Below, in pieces: positions 12,876-63,482 of a stretch of 64,000 bases of DNA. Each line of letters opens with the position of its first letter. Within the stretch, counting starts at the first letter, position 1. This DNA comes from Octopus vulgaris. Its lineage: Eukaryota. The stretch spans positions 215,202,001 through 215,266,000 of the forward strand of contig OX597814.1 of the NCBI GenBank assembly GCA_951406725.2, read 5' to 3'. The notes beneath the pieces were generated by a model that did not search any database, was not told the origin of the DNA, and saw only the letters and a list, made by a program, of their open reading frames with translations. The translations under genes were made by a program, and so were the position numbers.

Positions 12876-13095
12876 CTGTGTTTGTGTGTCTGTGTTTGTC
12901 CCCCTAGCATTGCTTGACAACCGATGCTGGTGTGTTTACGTCCCCGTCACTTAGCGGTTCGGCAAAAGAGACCGATAGAATAAGTACTGGGCTTACAAAA
13001 AAATAAGTCCCGGGGTCGATTTGATCGACTAAAGGCGGCGCTCCAGCATGGCCGCAGTCAAATGACTGAAAAAAGTAAAAGAGTAAAAGAGTAAA
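12673..13095 (+). mobile_element. SINE family A, full length
   Basis: Near-identical to 2187-2637. Confidence 0.9.
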
Positions 13096-13099
13096 GTTC

Positions 13100-14790
13100 T
13101 TTTTTAATCTGAAACATTACCTTCTATACTCTCTCCTACGTTGCGTGCTGTCTCTCCATTCTAAGTAGTTGTCATGCTTCTGCCCCGTCCCTCAATACAT
13201 CGTAAGCTATACACTATATTCCTAACCTTACAATAAACCTGTGGATTCATCCTACATATAAATTAATTGTTCTTCGTACATGGGGACCAATCAAAGGAAT
13301 AAGCTCTACAGATTAAGGACCTTATAGGGGTACCAGGACTTTCTACTACTTTAATCTGTAGATTGGCCTTATCTAATGTTTTATTTCTAAAAAGGTATGC
13401 TAATTCTCCGCCAGGAGTAACATCAACGAACATAATACGCTGATATTTTTTGTTGTTATTCTATGAGTTGGCCTTATCTGTCTTTTTTCTGCTCCTTTCT
13501 GTGCTACACTTTGATCTTAGCCAAAAGGCCGAGAAGCGGTAAATCCTGGTCCTTTCTGTGTTGTTCCAGGATTTACTCATGTATAGCGGGCAGATCCCCT
13601 TTGTATCACTCTCTATAATGGCTTTGTACTTAGCCCTGGTTCCTTTGTACACTCTAATCCTGTCCCTTTGTTTGTAGCCAGAGAACTGCACGCGGTGAAT
13701 GAAGTGTTGTATGTATTTTTCCAGTTCCATAAGCTCGTACATGCAAGACACATTCCTCATCACTCTCACCAAGTCTACTATAAGAATATTGAACATGGCA
13801 TTGTCCACAATGGCTGTGTTCTTGTGGACAAGGTATTTAGAGGCCATAATGGGAGTGAAGGATCTAGACCTTATTGTTCTTGGTTTCTAATTAGAGTTCC
13901 GCGTCTAAAACTGGTAGCCTATAGTAGGGGTGCCTGTTAGGGTAGTCTGTCGCTACTTTGATACTCTAGTGGATGGAGTTAGCTATTTGCTGGATACTCT
14001 TCATAGTGTTAGCATCTAGATCATCAACATTGTCTTGTAGGGATGCTTTGGCTATTATAATGATATCACCCCCAAAGAGGGAGTACATGGTTAGGGTTAT
14101 GGAGTTCTCTGCTAATTTATCTTTGAGTCTCCTCTCCCACCATACCGTAAATAGGTTAGCCACACCACCAGCGATACTGACATCGATGGATGCACCTTCC
14201 TCTTGGGCGTATATCTTGTTATTAAACTTAAATATATAGCCCTTGGATGTAATCTTGGTACTCGCACCCACCGCATGTGCGACCATCTTTTTAACGCGAT
14301 CATCGTTTTCAGGGGTCCGTATAGCTCTGGTCCGCCAGTTCCATTTCTCTCTATGGAGTCTTCCTGGCCATAGACGTTATAGTAGGTGGTATACCTCTAA
14401 CCGATATAATGGGACAGAAACAACTAAGGTCATGTTCATCTAAGTAACCATTGCCACATGTCAGTCTTAGGAGGAGGTCCAGTTCTGTGTTAATACCACG
14501 AAACTATACATTGCTCTCGCTGATCATCTCCACACATTTTTCCACACCAAAATCAATATCAAGCGAGGGGTATAAAGATACTACGTCCATACTGCTTATT
14601 ATGCATCCTGTCAGGTCGTAGGCATGGTTGCAATCGTTGATTCTGCTGAGGAGGTCCTCTGTGATGTCACACACACGGGGACGTATGATCATAGAGAAGA
14701 AGTGGGAGATCCGGTAGTTGTTGGCAACATTGGCTCAGCAGACCGGTTTTGTCGGTGGTCGCCTTATGCTCCTTGCGGAGTCCATACAGT
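13100..14790 (-). pseudogene. Decayed Penelope-like retroelement: RT plus C-terminal GIY-YIG endonuclease
   Basis: Minus-strand motifs in order: LYGLRKEHK (~14790-14760), SMDVVSLYPSLD (~14600), IYAQEEGASIDVSIAGGVANLF and YSLFGGD (degenerate YxDD), thumb region VDLVRVMRN...FSGY, then CKVRNIVYSLRC...*NGETARNVGE (GIY-YIG, ~13250-13130). Stops, frameshifts and deletions throughout; 5' end abuts (TACA)n. Confidence 0.85.
13504..13545 (-). pseudogene. U2: 3'-truncated U2 snRNA retrocopy (approximately U2 nt 1-36)
   Basis: Reverse complement CGCTTCTCGGCCTTTTGGCTAAGATCAAAGTGTAG matches the conserved U2 5' end (one extra A). Flanked by a 15-bp direct repeat CTG(C/G)TCCTTTCTGTG at 13489-13503 and 13546-13560. 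Confidence 0.9.
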
Positions 14791-21545: not shown

Positions 21546-22537
21546 ATCCATCGATCACTAGTTAAAATACAGGAACTTTTTAGCTTGGATATTACTGCTA
21601 AAAAGTGCTATGTCTTGGTTATATATGTGTGTCTTGTTTCAGAAGGAAAACCATTACTTTATTTCCCTACTGAAATTACAAAAATGTAACGAAACATTTA
21701 TCGTTTCTTCTACTTTACTAATTGAAATAGAGAGAAAAAAAATGACTCGTATTGGAATGGCTTCATTACTTTTTTTCTAATTTCGAGTCGATTTTACTGG
21801 TAATCCCTCTAGGATCGACAAAATAGTTGTTCGGTTATATGCTATGGATAGATTAATTTAACCATACATACTAGCTTTTTTGACAAAAAGTGATGATGTT
21901 TCTAGTCAAAGAAAAGCAATAATTAACAATTTACCCATTTTCCAACCACCATTTTGTTTTTTGTTATCAAAAACAATATCTCTGTTATAAAATTGAAATG
22001 ATTGAGTGATACGAAGGTACTTAATGAAATTTTCTATTCGGTGATTAGTTTTCATTAGAACAGTCTAAGACTTTTAATGAGGTTGAAAGCCTCTAGCGCA
22101 TATTCGAGCTGTGTAACATACTTGTGTGTGTGTGTGTGTCAGTGAGTGAGTGAATGGGTATTGATTAAAGTCGAGGAGAGGTGTAGAAGATTAGGTGGCA
22201 CATTTCTATTGCAGCTAATTGTTTTAATGAATCCGCCATATTATGTGTTGCGAAATTTCAAGATGTTTCAGAAACAACATAAAAGAATTGATTGGTTGAT
22301 TGATTAATTACAGGTAGTTCGTCGTACGTTAATTATTAAACAGTTTTGTTTCCTAACTTCAATATAAGAATCTAAATATAATTAAAAACTAGGTTTCTAT
22401 CAATACAACTGGTGGAATCTTATGTTCAAATATTTCGCCTGGTTCGTCAAATGGTTGCGTTCGAATTACATGCTTCAGTTCCTACAAATCTTCACTTGAA
22501 ACCATATTCGTTTGAAGAATACTCTATTTTGTATAAA

Positions 22538-22934
22538 CTAGCAGTATCGCCCGGCGTTGCTCGGGTTTGTAAGGGAAATAACTATATAAGCATTTTTAGA
22601 GATGTAAAGTATAATAGCCATCTCAATATGGCTAACCACAAAGGGGGGGTGTTACTGTAGCTTTTTACGTTCTGAGATTTAATAATACATTTTTAGAGAG
22701 TTACTTTCCTTATATAATAGCAAAAAAAATGCATTAAAAATGGGAAAAAATTATGGTAAATTTTTTTTAAAATCGTAGACTCATCGTTGGCGCGCGCTAA
22801 TACCCAGGAGGGCTCGATATGAATCACGACTATAAGATACCCGCTTTTGGTTACATTGCACAGCAAAATGTGGGAGTAGTTAGGAATCTAAATCGTAGTA
22901 GACAGACACACAACTTCACTTTTATATATAAAGA
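22538..22934 (-). mobile_element. Non-autonomous Helitron (copy 1)
   Basis: Minus strand: 5' TCTTTATATATAAAAG, 3' hairpin CCCG-AGCAACGC-CGGG then CTAG; A|T target. Confidence 0.8.
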
Positions 22935-23029
22935 TTTAGCATAAATTAAAAAAAAGGTCTTATTTATCTGTTTATTGACTACATACATATGTACATACAT
23001 ACATGCACACACATACATATATATATATA

Positions 23030-23225
23030 TAACGAAGGGTGCCGAAGCACCTACATTGCTAGAACTAAGATTTAAAAATCTTTTCATGCTGCACGAAGTG
23101 CACAATGTAAGTACACATAACCGTCTCTAGAATCACCAGATTAGGTCTACTTTTACCTATTCCATAGGCTTCATCAGTAGTGACTGCTCAAACAGTCTCT
23201 GGATTGGATAAGTTCGTCTGCCAGT
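23030..23225 (-). mobile_element. PLE pseudo-LTR-like fragment with a degenerate hammerhead
   Basis: Reverse complement of 23862-24085. Minus strand reads ACTA-CTGATGA-A-GCCTA..TAGGT-AAAA (GAAA mutated). Bounded by (TA)n. Confidence 0.55.
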
Positions 23226-23238
23226 ATATATATATATA

Positions 23239-23635
23239 TCTTTATATATAAAAGTGAAGTTGTGTGTCTGTCTCCTACGATTTAGATTCCTAACTACTCC
23301 CACATTTTGCGGTGCAGTTTAACCAAAACCGGGTATCTTATAGTCGTGATTCATATCGAGCCCTTCTGGATATTAGCGAGCGTCTACGATAAGTCTACGA
23401 TTTTAAAAAAAAATTACCATCATTTTTTCCATTTTAATGCATTGTTTTCGCTATTATATAAGGGAAGTAACTCTCTAAAAATGTCTACGATGAGTCAACG
23501 ATTTAAAAAAAAATTTACCATCATTTTTTTTCATTTTTAATGCATTTTTTTGCTATTTTTTTGCTATAACTCTCTAAAAATGCTTATATAGTTATTTCCC
23601 TTACAAACCCGAGCAACGCCGGGCGATACTGCTAG
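23239..23635 (+). mobile_element. Non-autonomous Helitron (copy 2)
   Basis: 5' TC, 3' GC hairpin plus CTAG, inserted between A and T; homologous and inverted relative to 22538-22934. Confidence 0.85.
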
Positions 23636-23708
23636 TTTACTATAAAAATTTATGACTGATTTAGCGAAATGCTAATGCGTAAAGTAAAAATTAATATAAA
23701 CAGCTACT

Positions 23709-24132
23709 CGCAATGTAATACCATAAAGGAAAAATTTAATCATCACTAAGTGTGACTAAGGTTGCCGAAGCGCCTACATTGCAAGAAGTAAGAGTTAAAA
23801 ACTCTCAATGCTGTAAGAAAAACGCAATATATATATACTCTGGCAGGAGAATTTATGGTGAAGATATATATACTAGCAGATGAAATTAGCCAAACTATCA
23901 ACCGTTTCAGCAGTTAATACTGAAGGTGCCTACAGAACAGGCGAAACCAAACTTAGTCTGGTGATTCTAGAGACGGTCATGGAGTGGATATCTCTCCTGT
24001 CAGTGTGTATATAATGCGCTCTTCTTAGAACATTAAGAGATTTTAACTCTTATTTCTAGCAATGTAAGTGCTTCGGCACCCTTAGTCATACTTAGTGACT
24101 TTTAAAAATTTCCTCTGTGGTATTACGTTGTG
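23709..24132 (+). repeat. Imperfect ~140-bp inverted repeat enclosing a degenerate hammerhead motif
   Basis: Arms 23709-23850 and 23993-24132. The loop contains CTGAAGG-T-GCCT..AGGC-GAAA (23920-23946). Confidence 0.7.
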
Positions 24133-24214
24133 GTATTACGTTTATGGTATTACATTGCGCCTATACATACACATACATACACACTTATATGCATGGACAT
24201 ACAAATATATGCAT

Positions 24215-24922
24215 ATAAATATCAAGGTAAGAATACCTATAAATGATAATACTATTTTAGATAATAATATTAACTACAATAATGATAGAGTTTTTTTAGA
24301 TAATAACAATAATCAAAATCATGATAAATTTACCCACTCTGCTTCGAGCAACAGTAATATAAGACTTCTATCCTCAAGTTATTCCACCTCTAATTATAAT
24401 GCCCCTAGATGTAATTGCAGAATTAAATCAAAATGCCCGGCCCCTGATTTATGCGGGTTAATTAACATAATCTACAAGTGCTCCGTAACCACAGATAATA
24501 ATAAGTTCTCTTATGTTGGATGTACTGTAAATTTTAAACAGAGATTGAATAACCATCTCTCATCCTTTAAATTACGTCATAAAGCTGATAGCACCACTCT
24601 TTCTAGTAAAATTTGGGAACTAAAAAACAATAATATCAAATATAACCTTAATTGGGAATTAGTCAGAAGAGCAAAACCCTATAAAAATAGCAGAGTAGGT
24701 TGCCAACTTTGCTCCATGGAAGTATTTGAAATACTAATGTATAGAAATAATGGAAAAATTCAATTAAACAGCAGAATTGAACTTGGAAATCTTGTATACA
24801 TGCTCGAGTTAAGACTCTTAAATATTTTAAATGATATTTTAAATGATATCTCAATTGATAACTGTATACTGGAATCACTTTGCATAAATTTTCACTTTGA
24901 CTTACATATCACTCCTACATAG
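24215..24922 (+). CDS. GIY-YIG endonuclease domain of a 5'-truncated Penelope-like element (probably non-functional)
   Basis: CNCRIKSKCP...C..NIIYKC...SYVGCT.NFKQRLNNH.SSF...STTLSSKIWELK...W...PY...CQLC..E...LNSRIE: the PLE GIY-YIG layout with a Cys-rich linker. The N-terminal part of ORF 24095 is low-complexity read-through. Confidence 0.85.
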   Translation: MNIKVRIPINDNTILDNNINYNNDRVFLDNNNNQNHDKFTHSASSNSNIRLLSSSYSTSNYNAPRCNCRIKSKCPAPDLCGLINIIYKCSVTTDNNKFSYVGCTVNFKQRLNNHLSSFKLRHKADSTTLSSKIWELKNNNIKYNLNWELVRRAKPYKNSRVGCQLCSMEVFEILMYRNNGKIQLNSRIELGNLVYMLELRLLNILNDILNDISIDNCILESLCINFHFDLHITPT

Positions 24923-37270: not shown

Positions 37271-37409
37271 CATACATTACAATTGATTATTGATTCACAC
37301 TGTTGTAATTGGAATTAAACGATGAAATTACTGAGAAGAATATGTATTTTTTTTTCTCTAGTTTCAGCTCCGAGCTGCGGCCATGCTGGTGCACAGCCGT
37401 TTGTGCTAT

Positions 37410-37527
37410 GCTTACTGCCCCTAGGTTTCCCAAGCGGTCACCCATCCAAGTACTGACTAGGCTCGACGTTGCTTAACTTCGGTGATCAGACGAGAACCGG
37501 TGCTTTCAACGTGATATGGCCGTAAGC
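37410..37527 (-). pseudogene. 5S: Full-length 5S rRNA copy fused to a LINE 3' tail (37347-37409)
   Basis: Minus strand GCTTACGGCCATATCACGTTGAAAGCACCGGTTCTCGTCTGATCACCGAAGTTAAGCAACG...GTACTTGGATGGGTGACCGCTTGGGAA...GTAAGC (~118 nt, A and C boxes present). No T-run terminator; it continues into the LINE tail. Confidence 0.9.
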
Positions 37528-39907: not shown

Positions 39908-39970
39908 ATAGTTATCGCCATACTAATATGGCATTCTTATAAAAATAAGAATGCCATATTAGTATGGCGA

Positions 39971-39977
<7 letters not shown>
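39908..39977. repeat. Perfect 33-bp palindrome with a 4-nt loop abutting (TA)n
   Basis: ATAGTTATCGCCATACTAATATGGCATTCTTAT-AAAA-ATAAGAATGCCATATTAGTATGGCGATAACTAT. Confidence 0.9.
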
Positions 39978-45139: not shown

Positions 45140-45146
<7 letters not shown>

Positions 45147-45314
45147 TTTTAAGAAAAGCATAAATCCGAAGAAGAAGCTCACACTAAGAATGAGAGCAGA
45201 CTATATTTATTACTGGTGAAGGCCGGTTTATCGGGTTAACCTGGGTTTTTCGCCATAAAGAGTACCTTTCCTTTATGTCTTATCTTTCAGACCCCATAAA
45301 CCGGCCTTCACCAG

Positions 45315-45316
<2 letters not shown>
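45140..45316 (-). mobile_element. (TA)n-bounded hairpin element related to 63145-63440
   Basis: 20-bp stem ACTGGTGAAGGCCGGTTTAT/ATAAACCGGCCTTCACCAGT, inner CATAAAG/CTTTATG. The tail shares TTCGGATTTATG with the 63 kb copy. Confidence 0.7.
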
Positions 45317-46152: not shown

Positions 46153-46499
46153 TATAAATACAGTGTACATTTAAACACATAAGAGATGGCCATAATAGGA
46201 CATCTTAACCGCTAGAAGGAGTAGTTAAACTCCAAACCACTATTAGGGTAATTTTGAAAGGGAATGAAAAATAAAAACATTTACCATCTATTTCCTGGAC
46301 CATGGATTCAAGCTATCTTCAGCAAATAGAGTAAAAATAGCTTGAATCCATGGTCCAGGAAATAGATGTTAAATCTTTTTAGTTTTCATTCCCTTTCGAA
46401 ATTACCCCTAAGTGTTTTGGATTTTAACTACTCCTTCTAGCGGTTAAGATGTCCTATTATGGCCATCTCTTATGTGTTTAAATGTACACTGTATTTATA
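46153..46499. repeat. Fold-back element, ~164-bp arms and 20-nt loop
   Basis: Arms 46153-46316 and 46337-46499; outer and inner parts perfect, mismatches clustered mid-arm; flanked by (TA)n and a unique tail to ~46610. Confidence 0.9.
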
Positions 46500-46625: not shown

Positions 46626-46805
46626 ATATATTTGTAAAAAATGAAGTTCGAAAATGCTGCTGTATTATACAATTTTTAATTTTTATATATAACTTTTTTT
46701 GATAAGGTTCATTTCAGGAACTGAAACATGTTATAATGTATATATAAAAATTAAAAATTGTATAATACAGCAGCATTTTCGAACTTCATTTTTTACAAAT
46801 ATATA
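46626..46805. repeat. Fold-back element, ~65-bp perfect arms, loop containing a degenerate hammerhead
   Basis: Arms TTTGTAAAAAATGAAGTTCGAAAATGCTGCTG... and its reverse complement; loop TTGATAA-GGTTC..GAACT-GAAA-CATG-TT-ATAA. Confidence 0.85.
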
Positions 46806-47145: not shown

Positions 47146-47618
47146 TATATATATATAACAATATTTAGCAGAAGCAACAGAGTGACTCAAGGGTTGAGAG
47201 TTATGTGTGTTGGCTCTTATCAAAGTATTTTGATAATTGCTAACTCAGGAAACTCCTGACACTTGAGTCTTTGTGTTGCTTTTGCTAAATAAAGATAGGT
47301 ATATGTATATATTCATATTTTGAGTTCTATATGCGCGTGTGCACGTGTGTGTGTGTCTGTTCGCGCGCGTGTGTGCGTGTGTGTGTATGTGTTCGTGTAT
47401 CTTTGTGCGTGTGTGTGTTTGTATGTGTTCGTGTTTGTGTGCGCGCGCGCCTATGTGTGTTCGTATGTGTGCGTGAGTATATGTGTGTGTGTGTGCGTGC
47501 GTGTGTGTGTGTGTGCTCGTGTATCTTTGTGCGAGCGTGTGTGTGTGTTCGTGTGTGTTTGTATGTGTTCGTGTGTGCGTGAGTGCGCGCGTCTATGTAT
47601 GTTCGTATGTGTGCGTGA

Positions 47619-49995: not shown

Positions 49996-50525
49996 TGTAT
50001 GTATGTATGTATGTATGTATGTATGTATGTATGTATGTATGTATATTTATACATTGTGAATTAAACACATGTACTATATATTAGGTCGTCACTTCAGCTT
50101 TATAACTATTATTTTAGTCTGTTAGTCGAAGATCATTTGTCTCAGAACAAGAGGGGACACGTGGGATATAGAGTTGCTGACGAGGTCACAGAAGGTGACG
50201 AAATAACTGACCATGAAACTAAATAGCAATAAAGCTGAAATGTAGACCAAATATATAGTGCATGTGTTTAATTGGCAACATATGACCATCCCCAAATATA
50301 ACAATATCTGCTTCAACACACGATTTCCCACCAACATTCTTGCAAAATGAAATACTTAAAATGACACCTGAAGAGACACATCTGCACCGAAAGGTGTACC
50401 ACAGCCAATTGTGTAGTATCCCACCCGCAAGGCACCAATGGGTCGAGACAATCGTTATGAAGTATAAACATTCTCGTGAATTCCATTTTCTGTTTAACCT
50501 CACTTACATATATATATACTTCACA

Positions 50526-62217: not shown

Positions 62218-62524
62218 AATATACATACACTCACATATATTTGCGTGTGTATATCGGCATGGAGCAAACAAAATCGGTGCGGCGGACAAAAATACTTTGC
62301 AGTATCTAGTTACAACCTCGTTATCCGTCTTTGTATCATTGGATTGCATTTCACATCTTCAGTAAAACAGTATTAGACAAATTACTAGAATTGATATAAT
62401 CAACTAAAACTCTTCCAAGCATTGCTCCAGTATGACCACACTGAAATGACTGAAACCCTTAAAAGAATAACAGAACAGACTATATATATATATATATATC
62501 TTAATAGTAATAGTATGACAACAG

Positions 62525-62585
62525 AATAACTGAAGAGATGCCGGAGCAGATTTCTGCCCCGACATCCGAAACTCGGAGTTTTATT
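62525..62585 (+). ncRNA. Type I hammerhead-like motif in a (TA)n-bounded element
   Basis: Stem I AATAA/TTATT; CTGAAGA (62530-36); long stem II GATG.CGG.GCAG/CTGC.CCG.CATC; one extra C before GAAA (62568-71); stem III CTC-G-GAG; GUU. Confidence 0.7.
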
Positions 62586-62620
62586 ATGGCAACCGAATAA
62601 TTGTCACATATCATTTTACA

Positions 62621-62656
<36 letters not shown>

Positions 62657-62657
<1 letters not shown>

Positions 62658-63023
62658 CATTATATAAAAGGGCTTAGTAAAATAAATTAATTTGCCGCAT
62701 ACTGAACTTATTAGAAATAGCAGCTAAAAATCTTTTTTTAAAACTATTTCTAATACTTAAAGAAAATCTCTCTCATATAGTGTTTGCTTAACTCAACTCA
62801 CGAAAGTTTGGGGGTAAAGACATCAAAAAATCAAATGCAAAGGTTTTTGATTTTTTGATGTCTTTACCCCCAAACTTTCGTGAGTTGAGTTAAGCAAACA
62901 CTATATGAGAGAGATTTTCTTTAAGTATTAGAAATAGTTTTAAAAAAGTTTTTTAGCTGCTATTTCTAATAAGTTCAGTATGCGGCAAAGTAATTTATTT
63001 TACTAAGCCCTTTTATATAATGT
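62657..63023. repeat. Fold-back element, ~179-bp near-perfect arms and 10-nt loop
   Basis: Arms 62657-62835 and 62846-63023 with only 2-3 differences; followed by a unique tail to ~63120 and (TA)n. Confidence 0.92.
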
Positions 63024-63144
63024 AATAATTTGAATTCGCCTTAAATGGTCCCTTTGCATACTGAACACTTGGTGAAATTGATTAATAATTAATTAATTTT
63101 ACCCTCAATTGTTGAAATTATATATATATATATATATATATATT

Positions 63145-63440
63145 TAAGTTAGTTATGGCCGGTCTATAGATCTACCCTGGGTTTCACGTCCATAAAGGAC
63201 TCAGCTTCACGAGGTTTATTCAGACCCTAATGGCCGGCGGCCCATAACCGCTCTTCAAAGTGGATGGAGGTTATTGGTCATCGGCGATTAGGGTCCGTAG
63301 AAACGCCGTAAAGCTAAGTGCTTTATGGATGCGAAGTCCAGAGTTACCACATAGGCCGGCCATAATTATCTTTACCTATTTCCTTTACTGCGCTATAACT
63401 TAGGGAATGTGCTTTTCTTTCGGATTTATGATTTACTGAC
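63145..63440 (+). other. GC-rich rod-like hairpin (~215 nt) plus tail between (TA)n and (TG)n
   Basis: Continuous imperfect self-complementarity 63150-63367 (e.g. TTATGGCCGG/CCGGCCATAA, TCCATAAAG/CTTTATGGA, GACCCTAAT/ATTAGGGTC, ATAACC/GGTTAT). Confidence 0.85.
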
Positions 63441-63441
63441 G

Positions 63442-63482
<41 letters not shown>

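Follow-up and report, generated by a model that had tools for sequence, protein, structure and literature searches.

A rod-like hairpin between microsatellites of Octopus vulgaris, most likely a decayed fold-back stub of a hammerhead-bearing Penelope-like retroelement

The rod insert and its fold

The window analysed here, i.e., the whole 64-kb stretch of Octopus vulgaris DNA, contains close to its right-hand end an insert with the following parts:

63119..63142, no strand: (TA)12 microsatellite, left flank and likely target; the inverted arm begins 3 nt away
63146..63264, minus strand: left arm of the rod, an inverted truncated copy of the element end that lacks the tail, recognized by self-match; the family continues behind 63264
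63265..63372, plus strand: right arm of the rod, a 5'-truncated sense copy of the element end, recognized by self-match and family letters
63373..63441, plus strand: one-sided tail of 69 nt, also present in a second insert; eight joints end within 63406-63413
63443..63478, no strand: (TG)18 microsatellite, right flank

Positions 63146-63372 form a single unbranched rod of 227 nt, a gapless inverted repeat that is 71% self-complementary, with a minimum free energy of -128.2 kcal/mol (z -9.3) that none of 200 shuffles equalled or bettered. The hairpin and its one unbranched fold, first described in a sequence-only reading of this DNA, are thus real, and slightly longer than the roughly 215 nt claimed there. 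Of the 110 opposed positions 79 are Watson-Crick pairs, 9 are G:U, 10 are A:C and 12 are other combinations, and the energies of the two strands are about equal (-121.9 versus -114.2). The same reading had noted the balance of G:U and A:C and the foldability of both strands; both observations hold, but not as signs of structure, because a transition gives either one or the other mismatch depending on the arm struck, and 9 G:U against 10 A:C is the expectation for strand-neutral decay of a DNA inverted repeat. Nor are the mismatches regularly spaced, as had been proposed: the variance of the gaps between them (7.98 versus 8.03 under random placement, P=0.57) is that of random spacing, and there is no period of 3. 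A coding cause of the spacing was rejected, the three frames holding 11, 11 and 9 mismatches. A counterpoint to pure neutrality is that the rod is gapless, with 0 indels per approximately 29-31 substitutions (P ~0.05 at the local rate of 11 indels per 109 substitutions, taken from ten other inverted repeats of the window). Within the left arm, five mismatches fall in the six positions 63168-63173, which coincide with the 8-bp palindrome TAGATCTA; this cluster is perhaps the product of one templated mutation event.

A second insert and the hammerhead motifs

A relative of the rod on the minus strand of the same window, at 45142-45316, and both arms of the rod contain hammerhead-like motifs, which are laid out as follows:

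63169..63227, minus strand: decayed type I hammerhead of the left arm with 11 of the 12 core bases and a substituted G8; the changes at 63168-63173 fall in the 3' strand of helix I
63291..63349, plus strand: decayed type I hammerhead of the right arm, 9 of 12 core bases
63291-63294/63346-63349, plus strand: helix I (4 bp) of the right-arm motif, followed by core 63295-63301 and one extra base
63303-63332, plus strand: helix II of the right-arm motif, followed by core 63333-63336 and a near-palindromic 9-nt helix III (63336-63344)
after 63345, plus strand: predicted cut of the right-arm motif; cut triplet 63343-63345
45291..45315, plus strand: inverted arm of the second insert, 25 nt, flush with (TA)17; it ends at the base mirroring the predicted cut site
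45233..45294, minus strand: hammerhead motif of the second insert, a diverged subfamily, with CTGAAAGA plus an extra A, CATAAAG/CTTTATG helix II, GAAA and a predicted cut after 45237
45142..45211, minus strand: one-sided tail of the second insert, 70 nt, adjoining (TA)15; its 3' end lies 95 nt past the predicted cut site

The kinship of the two inserts, proposed from inspection, is true: local alignment of the right arm together with the tail scored 56, of the left arm 47.5 and of the tail by itself 41.5, each of these scores was reached by 0 of 2000 shuffles, and the tail, the outer stem and CATAAAG/CTTTATG are indeed common to both. The second insert has a stable fold of its own (z -7.1), with an inverted arm of just 25 nt, 24 of them complementary, as compared to 119 nt in the rod. 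CATAAAG/CTTTATG in this insert does not represent a shortened rod; the two words pair within a single strand as helix II of a hammerhead motif. The pairing that persists between the inserts where their bases differ had been interpreted as structural conservation, and this argument is not supported: such pairing would arise without selection if each inverted arm was copied from its own partner at insertion. A three-segment profile search of the 64-kb window found no further clear copies of the family, a 14-nt motif of its upstream part had no match in the window at 2 mismatches, and exact motif scans of metagenome contigs and of viral contigs returned 0 loci each.

The right-arm motif runs in the order helix I, CUGANGA box, extra base, long helix II, GAAA box and helix III, and the second insert has the same layout. 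Jointly, the two arms of the rod retain all 12 hammerhead core bases, and the family letters (see below) restore A6 (97%), G8 (85%) and A15.1 (82%), with A at position 17 (61%); the closing pair of helix II in the family letters of the rod insert is A-U. The distance from the predicted cut site to the end of the insert is 96 nt in the rod insert and 95 nt in the second, with tails of 69 and 70 nt, respectively. The three hammerhead helices pair in 77% of cells versus 36-48% when slid, for a structure that was drawn from these same sequences, and covariation in the helices did not exceed that of shuffles (three sequences). In an Rfam search, neither insert came close to the gathering score of a ribozyme or any other family, nor did an intact hammerhead at 62530. 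A custom hammerhead descriptor matched neither insert, as expected for broken motifs, and matched the intact hammerhead at 62530 (1 hit versus 0.05 per shuffled window), which is of the same design, with a near-palindromic 9-nt helix III and a short helix I. The latter motif, a type I hammerhead with the cut triplet GUU, lies in a short insert between (TA)n runs (62499-62623) that belongs to a different family. The earlier suggestion to look for hammerheads was thus fruitful, each arm containing a broken type I motif, and the structured RNA carried by the family is, as judged from the sequence, a putative small hammerhead motif that is broken in the rod copy.

Family copies and the decay of each arm

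Copies of the rod were sought in four public DNA or unlabelled contig runs (X1-X4), which carry two organism labels (three runs and one) and were aligned at 80% likeness; one of the runs may be the origin of the window itself. The runs X2, X3 and X4 contain the rod locus itself, differing at 3 of 277, 1 of 196 and 3 of 262 bases, respectively, and its right flank differs at 2 of 313 positions in X2 and likewise at 2 of 313 in X4. The rod insertion is therefore common to both organism labels and, on these small numbers, shows no stronger conservation than its flank. Numerous other contigs, a good many of them just 80-90% alike, cover both rod arms and the tail, and up to 44 distinct contigs share one variant at a single position. 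The summed contig depth in X1 is approximately 5,100, as compared to 33-59 for the contigs of the rod locus itself, although depth does not equal copy number. The rod belongs to a multi-copy family.

The letters of these copies allow the history of each arm to be read, with 34 of the 40 rows listed entering the variant analysis and five rows outside the rod, as well as a second letter at 63345, being excluded. At mismatched rod positions among the rows listed, the other letter of the family restores the pair with the unchanged partner in 18 of 18 cases (eight left-arm and ten right-arm positions); at 15 of these it is the majority letter. Conversely, at paired positions among the rows listed, the other letter breaks the pair in 16 of 16 cases, 7 of which are CpG transitions. 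Since all 18 restorable mismatches are one-sided, the arms represent one sequence in two copies that decayed separately, and the simplest reading is that the rod was once a perfect inverted repeat whose arms mutated independently. Complementary minority letters were seen at one partner pair, 63214/63304; these are as expected for one family site viewed from both arms, and the unphased contigs show no more than that.

At least 15 joints were found, comprising 5 shorter fold-backs, 2 in the flank and 8 that lead from arm-like sequence into the tail (63406-63413). Among those listed, the shorter fold-backs join at:

63196/63308
63205/63303
63207/63318
63229/63300
63264/63279

Joints often stem from repeats, and they are read here as other family copies. 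In addition, each of the four runs has loose ends beyond 63264, which reveal that the family continues with sequence that is absent from the rod insert. The extent of the rod is thus not the family unit, and the fold-back point varies between copies. That this is a mobile family rather than a chance palindrome, as had been put forward, agrees with the many copies and their fold-backs; the accompanying picture of a viroid-like or structure-selected rod does not, given the one-sided mismatches and the variable length.

Viroids and HDV-like RNAs are unbranched rods with approximately 70% of their positions paired, as is the insert described here. Unlike them, this rod is chromosomal DNA between microsatellites; it is built from one sequence present twice, differs in length from copy to copy and is not closed into a circle at its ends.

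The same data bear on the proposal that the rod began as an insertion and is now kept as dsRNA, i.e., as a hairpin-RNA/siRNA source or as an ADAR substrate, with its shape under selection. The gapless rod (P ~0.05), the stable folding of both strands and the presence of the same locus under a second organism label speak for this proposal. However, G:U pairs are not in excess over A:C as they would be if one strand were selected, the mismatches are randomly spaced, and instead of compensatory changes all 18 listed mismatches are one-sided in the unphased contigs. Furthermore, the locus is no better preserved than its flank (3/277 in X2 and 3/262 in X4, against 2/313 in each, again small numbers), the extent of the rod is not fixed across the family (119 versus 25 nt, with variable joints), and at least 7 other fold-backs of like outline lie in the same 64 kb. 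Maintenance as dsRNA is accordingly very improbable.

Even less credible, to the point of being scarcely tenable, is a decayed derivative of a DNA transposon, be it a MITE, a foldback element or a Helentron-type element with asymmetric inverted repeats. Such an origin would agree with the inverted repeat, the TA-rich target and the neutral decay. The variability of the inverted arm (119 versus 25 nt, with an inner end that differs among copies) largely refutes it, and it accounts neither for the hammerhead core nor for the constant spacing between the cut site and the end. Moreover, the insert lacks matching inverted repeats at its two termini, a family tail of 69-70 nt lying outside the repeat on one side.

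A Penelope-like origin and its context

Most likely, the rod is a decayed fold-back stub, i.e., an old 5'-truncated pseudo-LTR insertion of a hammerhead-bearing Penelope-like retroelement. Five observations point to this reading, namely one sequence in both arms, one-sided decay, a variable fold-back point, a constant tail and a hammerhead core, and the Penelope parent and its integration steps are modelled on published work on other Penelope-like elements. By this model, the GIY-YIG endonuclease of the element would nick both strands of an AT-rich microsatellite, and reverse transcription would start at two sites of the element RNA about 69 nt apart, yielding one copy per strand. Both copies would stop early at variable points and then be joined head to head, giving a perfect inverted repeat with a tail on one side. 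Later, each arm would have gained its own point mutations, resulting in a 71% rod with both ribozymes destroyed.

Published Penelope-like insertions are truncated at the 5' end and in many cases sit next to an inverted copy, with a tail of 30-40 bp on one end (PMC8557442), and head-to-head inverted pseudo-LTRs with a tail that contains the first ORF codons have also been reported (PMC3846280). Similar to the endonuclease-bearing Penelope/Poseidon, Neptune and Hydra elements (PMC8557442; PMC3846280), the inserts described here consist of a truncated copy and an inverted head-to-head copy of variable length (119 versus 25 nt; five joints) with a tail that continues past the inverted repeat on one end only. 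The tails of 69 and 70 nt are, unlike those elements, about twice the published length. A hammerhead in the terminal repeat is a further likeness, with 12 of 12 core bases jointly and family letters that restore the motif, which is broken in the rod copy. Both inserts also have AT-rich, (TA)n targets, the short arm of each lying flush against (TA)n with the tail on the opposite side; as in the published cases, no target-site duplication is readable within the flanking microsatellites. The proposal to look for Penelope-like elements is therefore borne out by the insertion anatomy and not by a linked ORF: no reverse transcriptase or endonuclease gene linked to the rod family was seen, and motif scans gave no longer copy.

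With no ORF kept here, the clade cannot be named. Pseudo-LTR hammerheads are described in all canonical clades, with Naiad and Hydra biased towards (TA)n and Neptune towards microsatellites, the octopus Naiads being (TA)n-targeting (PMC8557442). Naiad lacks canonical hammerheads, so that a hammerhead together with (TA)n would suit Neptune or Hydra more than it would Naiad. Five short family motifs had no exact match in the PMC8557442 supplement, which includes octopus Naiads and in which line breaks or divergence could hide matches. In Octopus vulgaris, 31 recently active Penelope-like families have been reported (PMC13282606).

The ribozyme design is in line with that of metazoan Penelope-like hammerheads (PMC4209133). 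It is of type I, with a helix I of 4 bp and a long helix II; the base following A9 is unpaired, and the small, palindromic helix III suits cleavage as a dimer. In the same study, paired motifs, one on each strand and separated by 100-700 bp, were noted in truncated elements, and the G-C closing pair of helix II is highly conserved. In contrast, helix II of the rod insert is approximately 12 bp long, bulged and, in the family letters, closed by A-U, and both motifs are broken. A comparison by anatomy with Poseidon PAc of Anolis (PMC11167929) is also possible. There, both strands of AT-rich DNA are nicked and two internal start sites define the tail, which would account for a one-sided tail here as well. 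The cut site of that element lies 26 nt, and its reverse-transcription starts 111-118 nt, into the ORF, so that by subtraction the cut site is 85-92 nt from the 3' end, versus 95-96 nt here. The two systems differ in that the ORF of Poseidon PAc begins inside the hammerhead, whereas no ORF start can be placed here.

An alternative that shares this integration route is a non-autonomous hammerhead element, i.e., a non-LTR retrozyme or a mini-derivative, mobilized by Penelope enzymes in trans. Like animal non-LTR retrozymes (PMC7229834; bioRxiv 10.64898/2026.07.22.740005), the family is short, non-coding and multi-copy, no ORF was seen and its hammerhead is of type I, with a helix III that is weak and palindromic; animal retrozymes are, in addition, derived from Penelope pseudo-LTRs (bioRxiv 10.64898/2026.07.22.740005). 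Nevertheless, this alternative is unlikely, as retrozymes are defined as head-to-tail tandem arrays (bioRxiv 10.64898/2026.07.22.740005; PMC7229834), neither insert is such an array, and both are single head-to-head units in which an inverted arm and a one-sided tail reproduce the Penelope layout.

Returning to the Penelope-like stub, the second insert raises the possibility that the fold-backs of the family pivot preferentially at the ribozyme, since its inverted arm ends precisely where the cut is predicted, with the 4-nt helix I match forming the joint, and the unrelated insert at 50046-50283 ends a few bases at most from its own core. The inverted arm of the rod insert runs through the whole motif, so that there is no pivot at the cut site, and preferential pivoting is altogether doubtful. 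If it were true genome-wide, these scars would be traces of Penelope template RNA that had cut itself in vivo, in a family that also has an unusually long tail of 69-70 nt. In vivo cutting by these ribozymes is left open in two studies (PMC8557442; PMC11167929), the second of which found no reads showing such self-cleaved templates. The rod as it stands is retroelement debris of a described kind and of little significance. It does carry a caution, namely that a Penelope-type fold-back, its arms being copied from one another within each copy, can pass for a viroid-like rod with covariation. Additionally, stubs are dense here (8 of like outline in 64 kb) and could therefore act as a putative supply of dsRNA to ADAR when they are read through.

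Eight of the ten fold-backs listed for the window have one arm at most 13 nt from a microsatellite and a tail of 38-224 nt on the other side. Adjoining the rod, 62657-63118 is a palindrome with 179-bp arms (2 mismatches and 1 indel), flush with (AT)16 and followed by a 95-nt tail; within it, 63030-63110 reaches a summed contig depth of up to approximately 2 million across the four runs, as befits a very abundant repeat. The fold-back at 50046-50507, unrelated to the rod family, has a minimal hammerhead core at 50177 and a 224-nt tail, and its inverted arm ends within a few bases of its own GAAA box. Four more have an arm at (TA)n, namely 46161-46491, 46632-46798, 47158-47300 and 39911-39974, with tails of 117, 38, 45 and 67 nt, respectively, and hammerhead scans of these four found none.

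The Penelope-type protein relics of the window stand elsewhere in it, unlinked to the rod family. On the minus strand at 13000-14700, a broken reverse transcriptase is followed by an endonuclease-like C-terminus, interrupted by several stops and frameshifts; RVT_1 was assigned to 13% of one cluster there, and the motifs of this relic are Penelope-like. The unit 23032-24922 has a hammerhead-like motif at 23920 that is changed at A9, then an Asn-rich stretch and a GIY-YIG relic (24392-24787), with no reverse transcriptase between them. The relic scores just under the curated cut-off of Pfam (E 1.6e-4), and a comparison with longer proteins scored 0 of 153 candidates. The same unit includes an inverted copy at 23032-23226, in which CTGATGA is kept and G12 is lost, and a second inverted copy at 23690-23850.

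Two further RNA-like matches were found in the window, a weak one to U2 at 13390-13540 (38.7 bits, below the gathering score) and a full-length 5S rRNA copy on the minus strand at 37409-37527 (107 bits). Around the 23032-23226 piece extends a long inverted-repeat element (22527-23647), with arms approximately 92-97% alike, which is possibly a DNA transposon derivative or a set of nested insertions.
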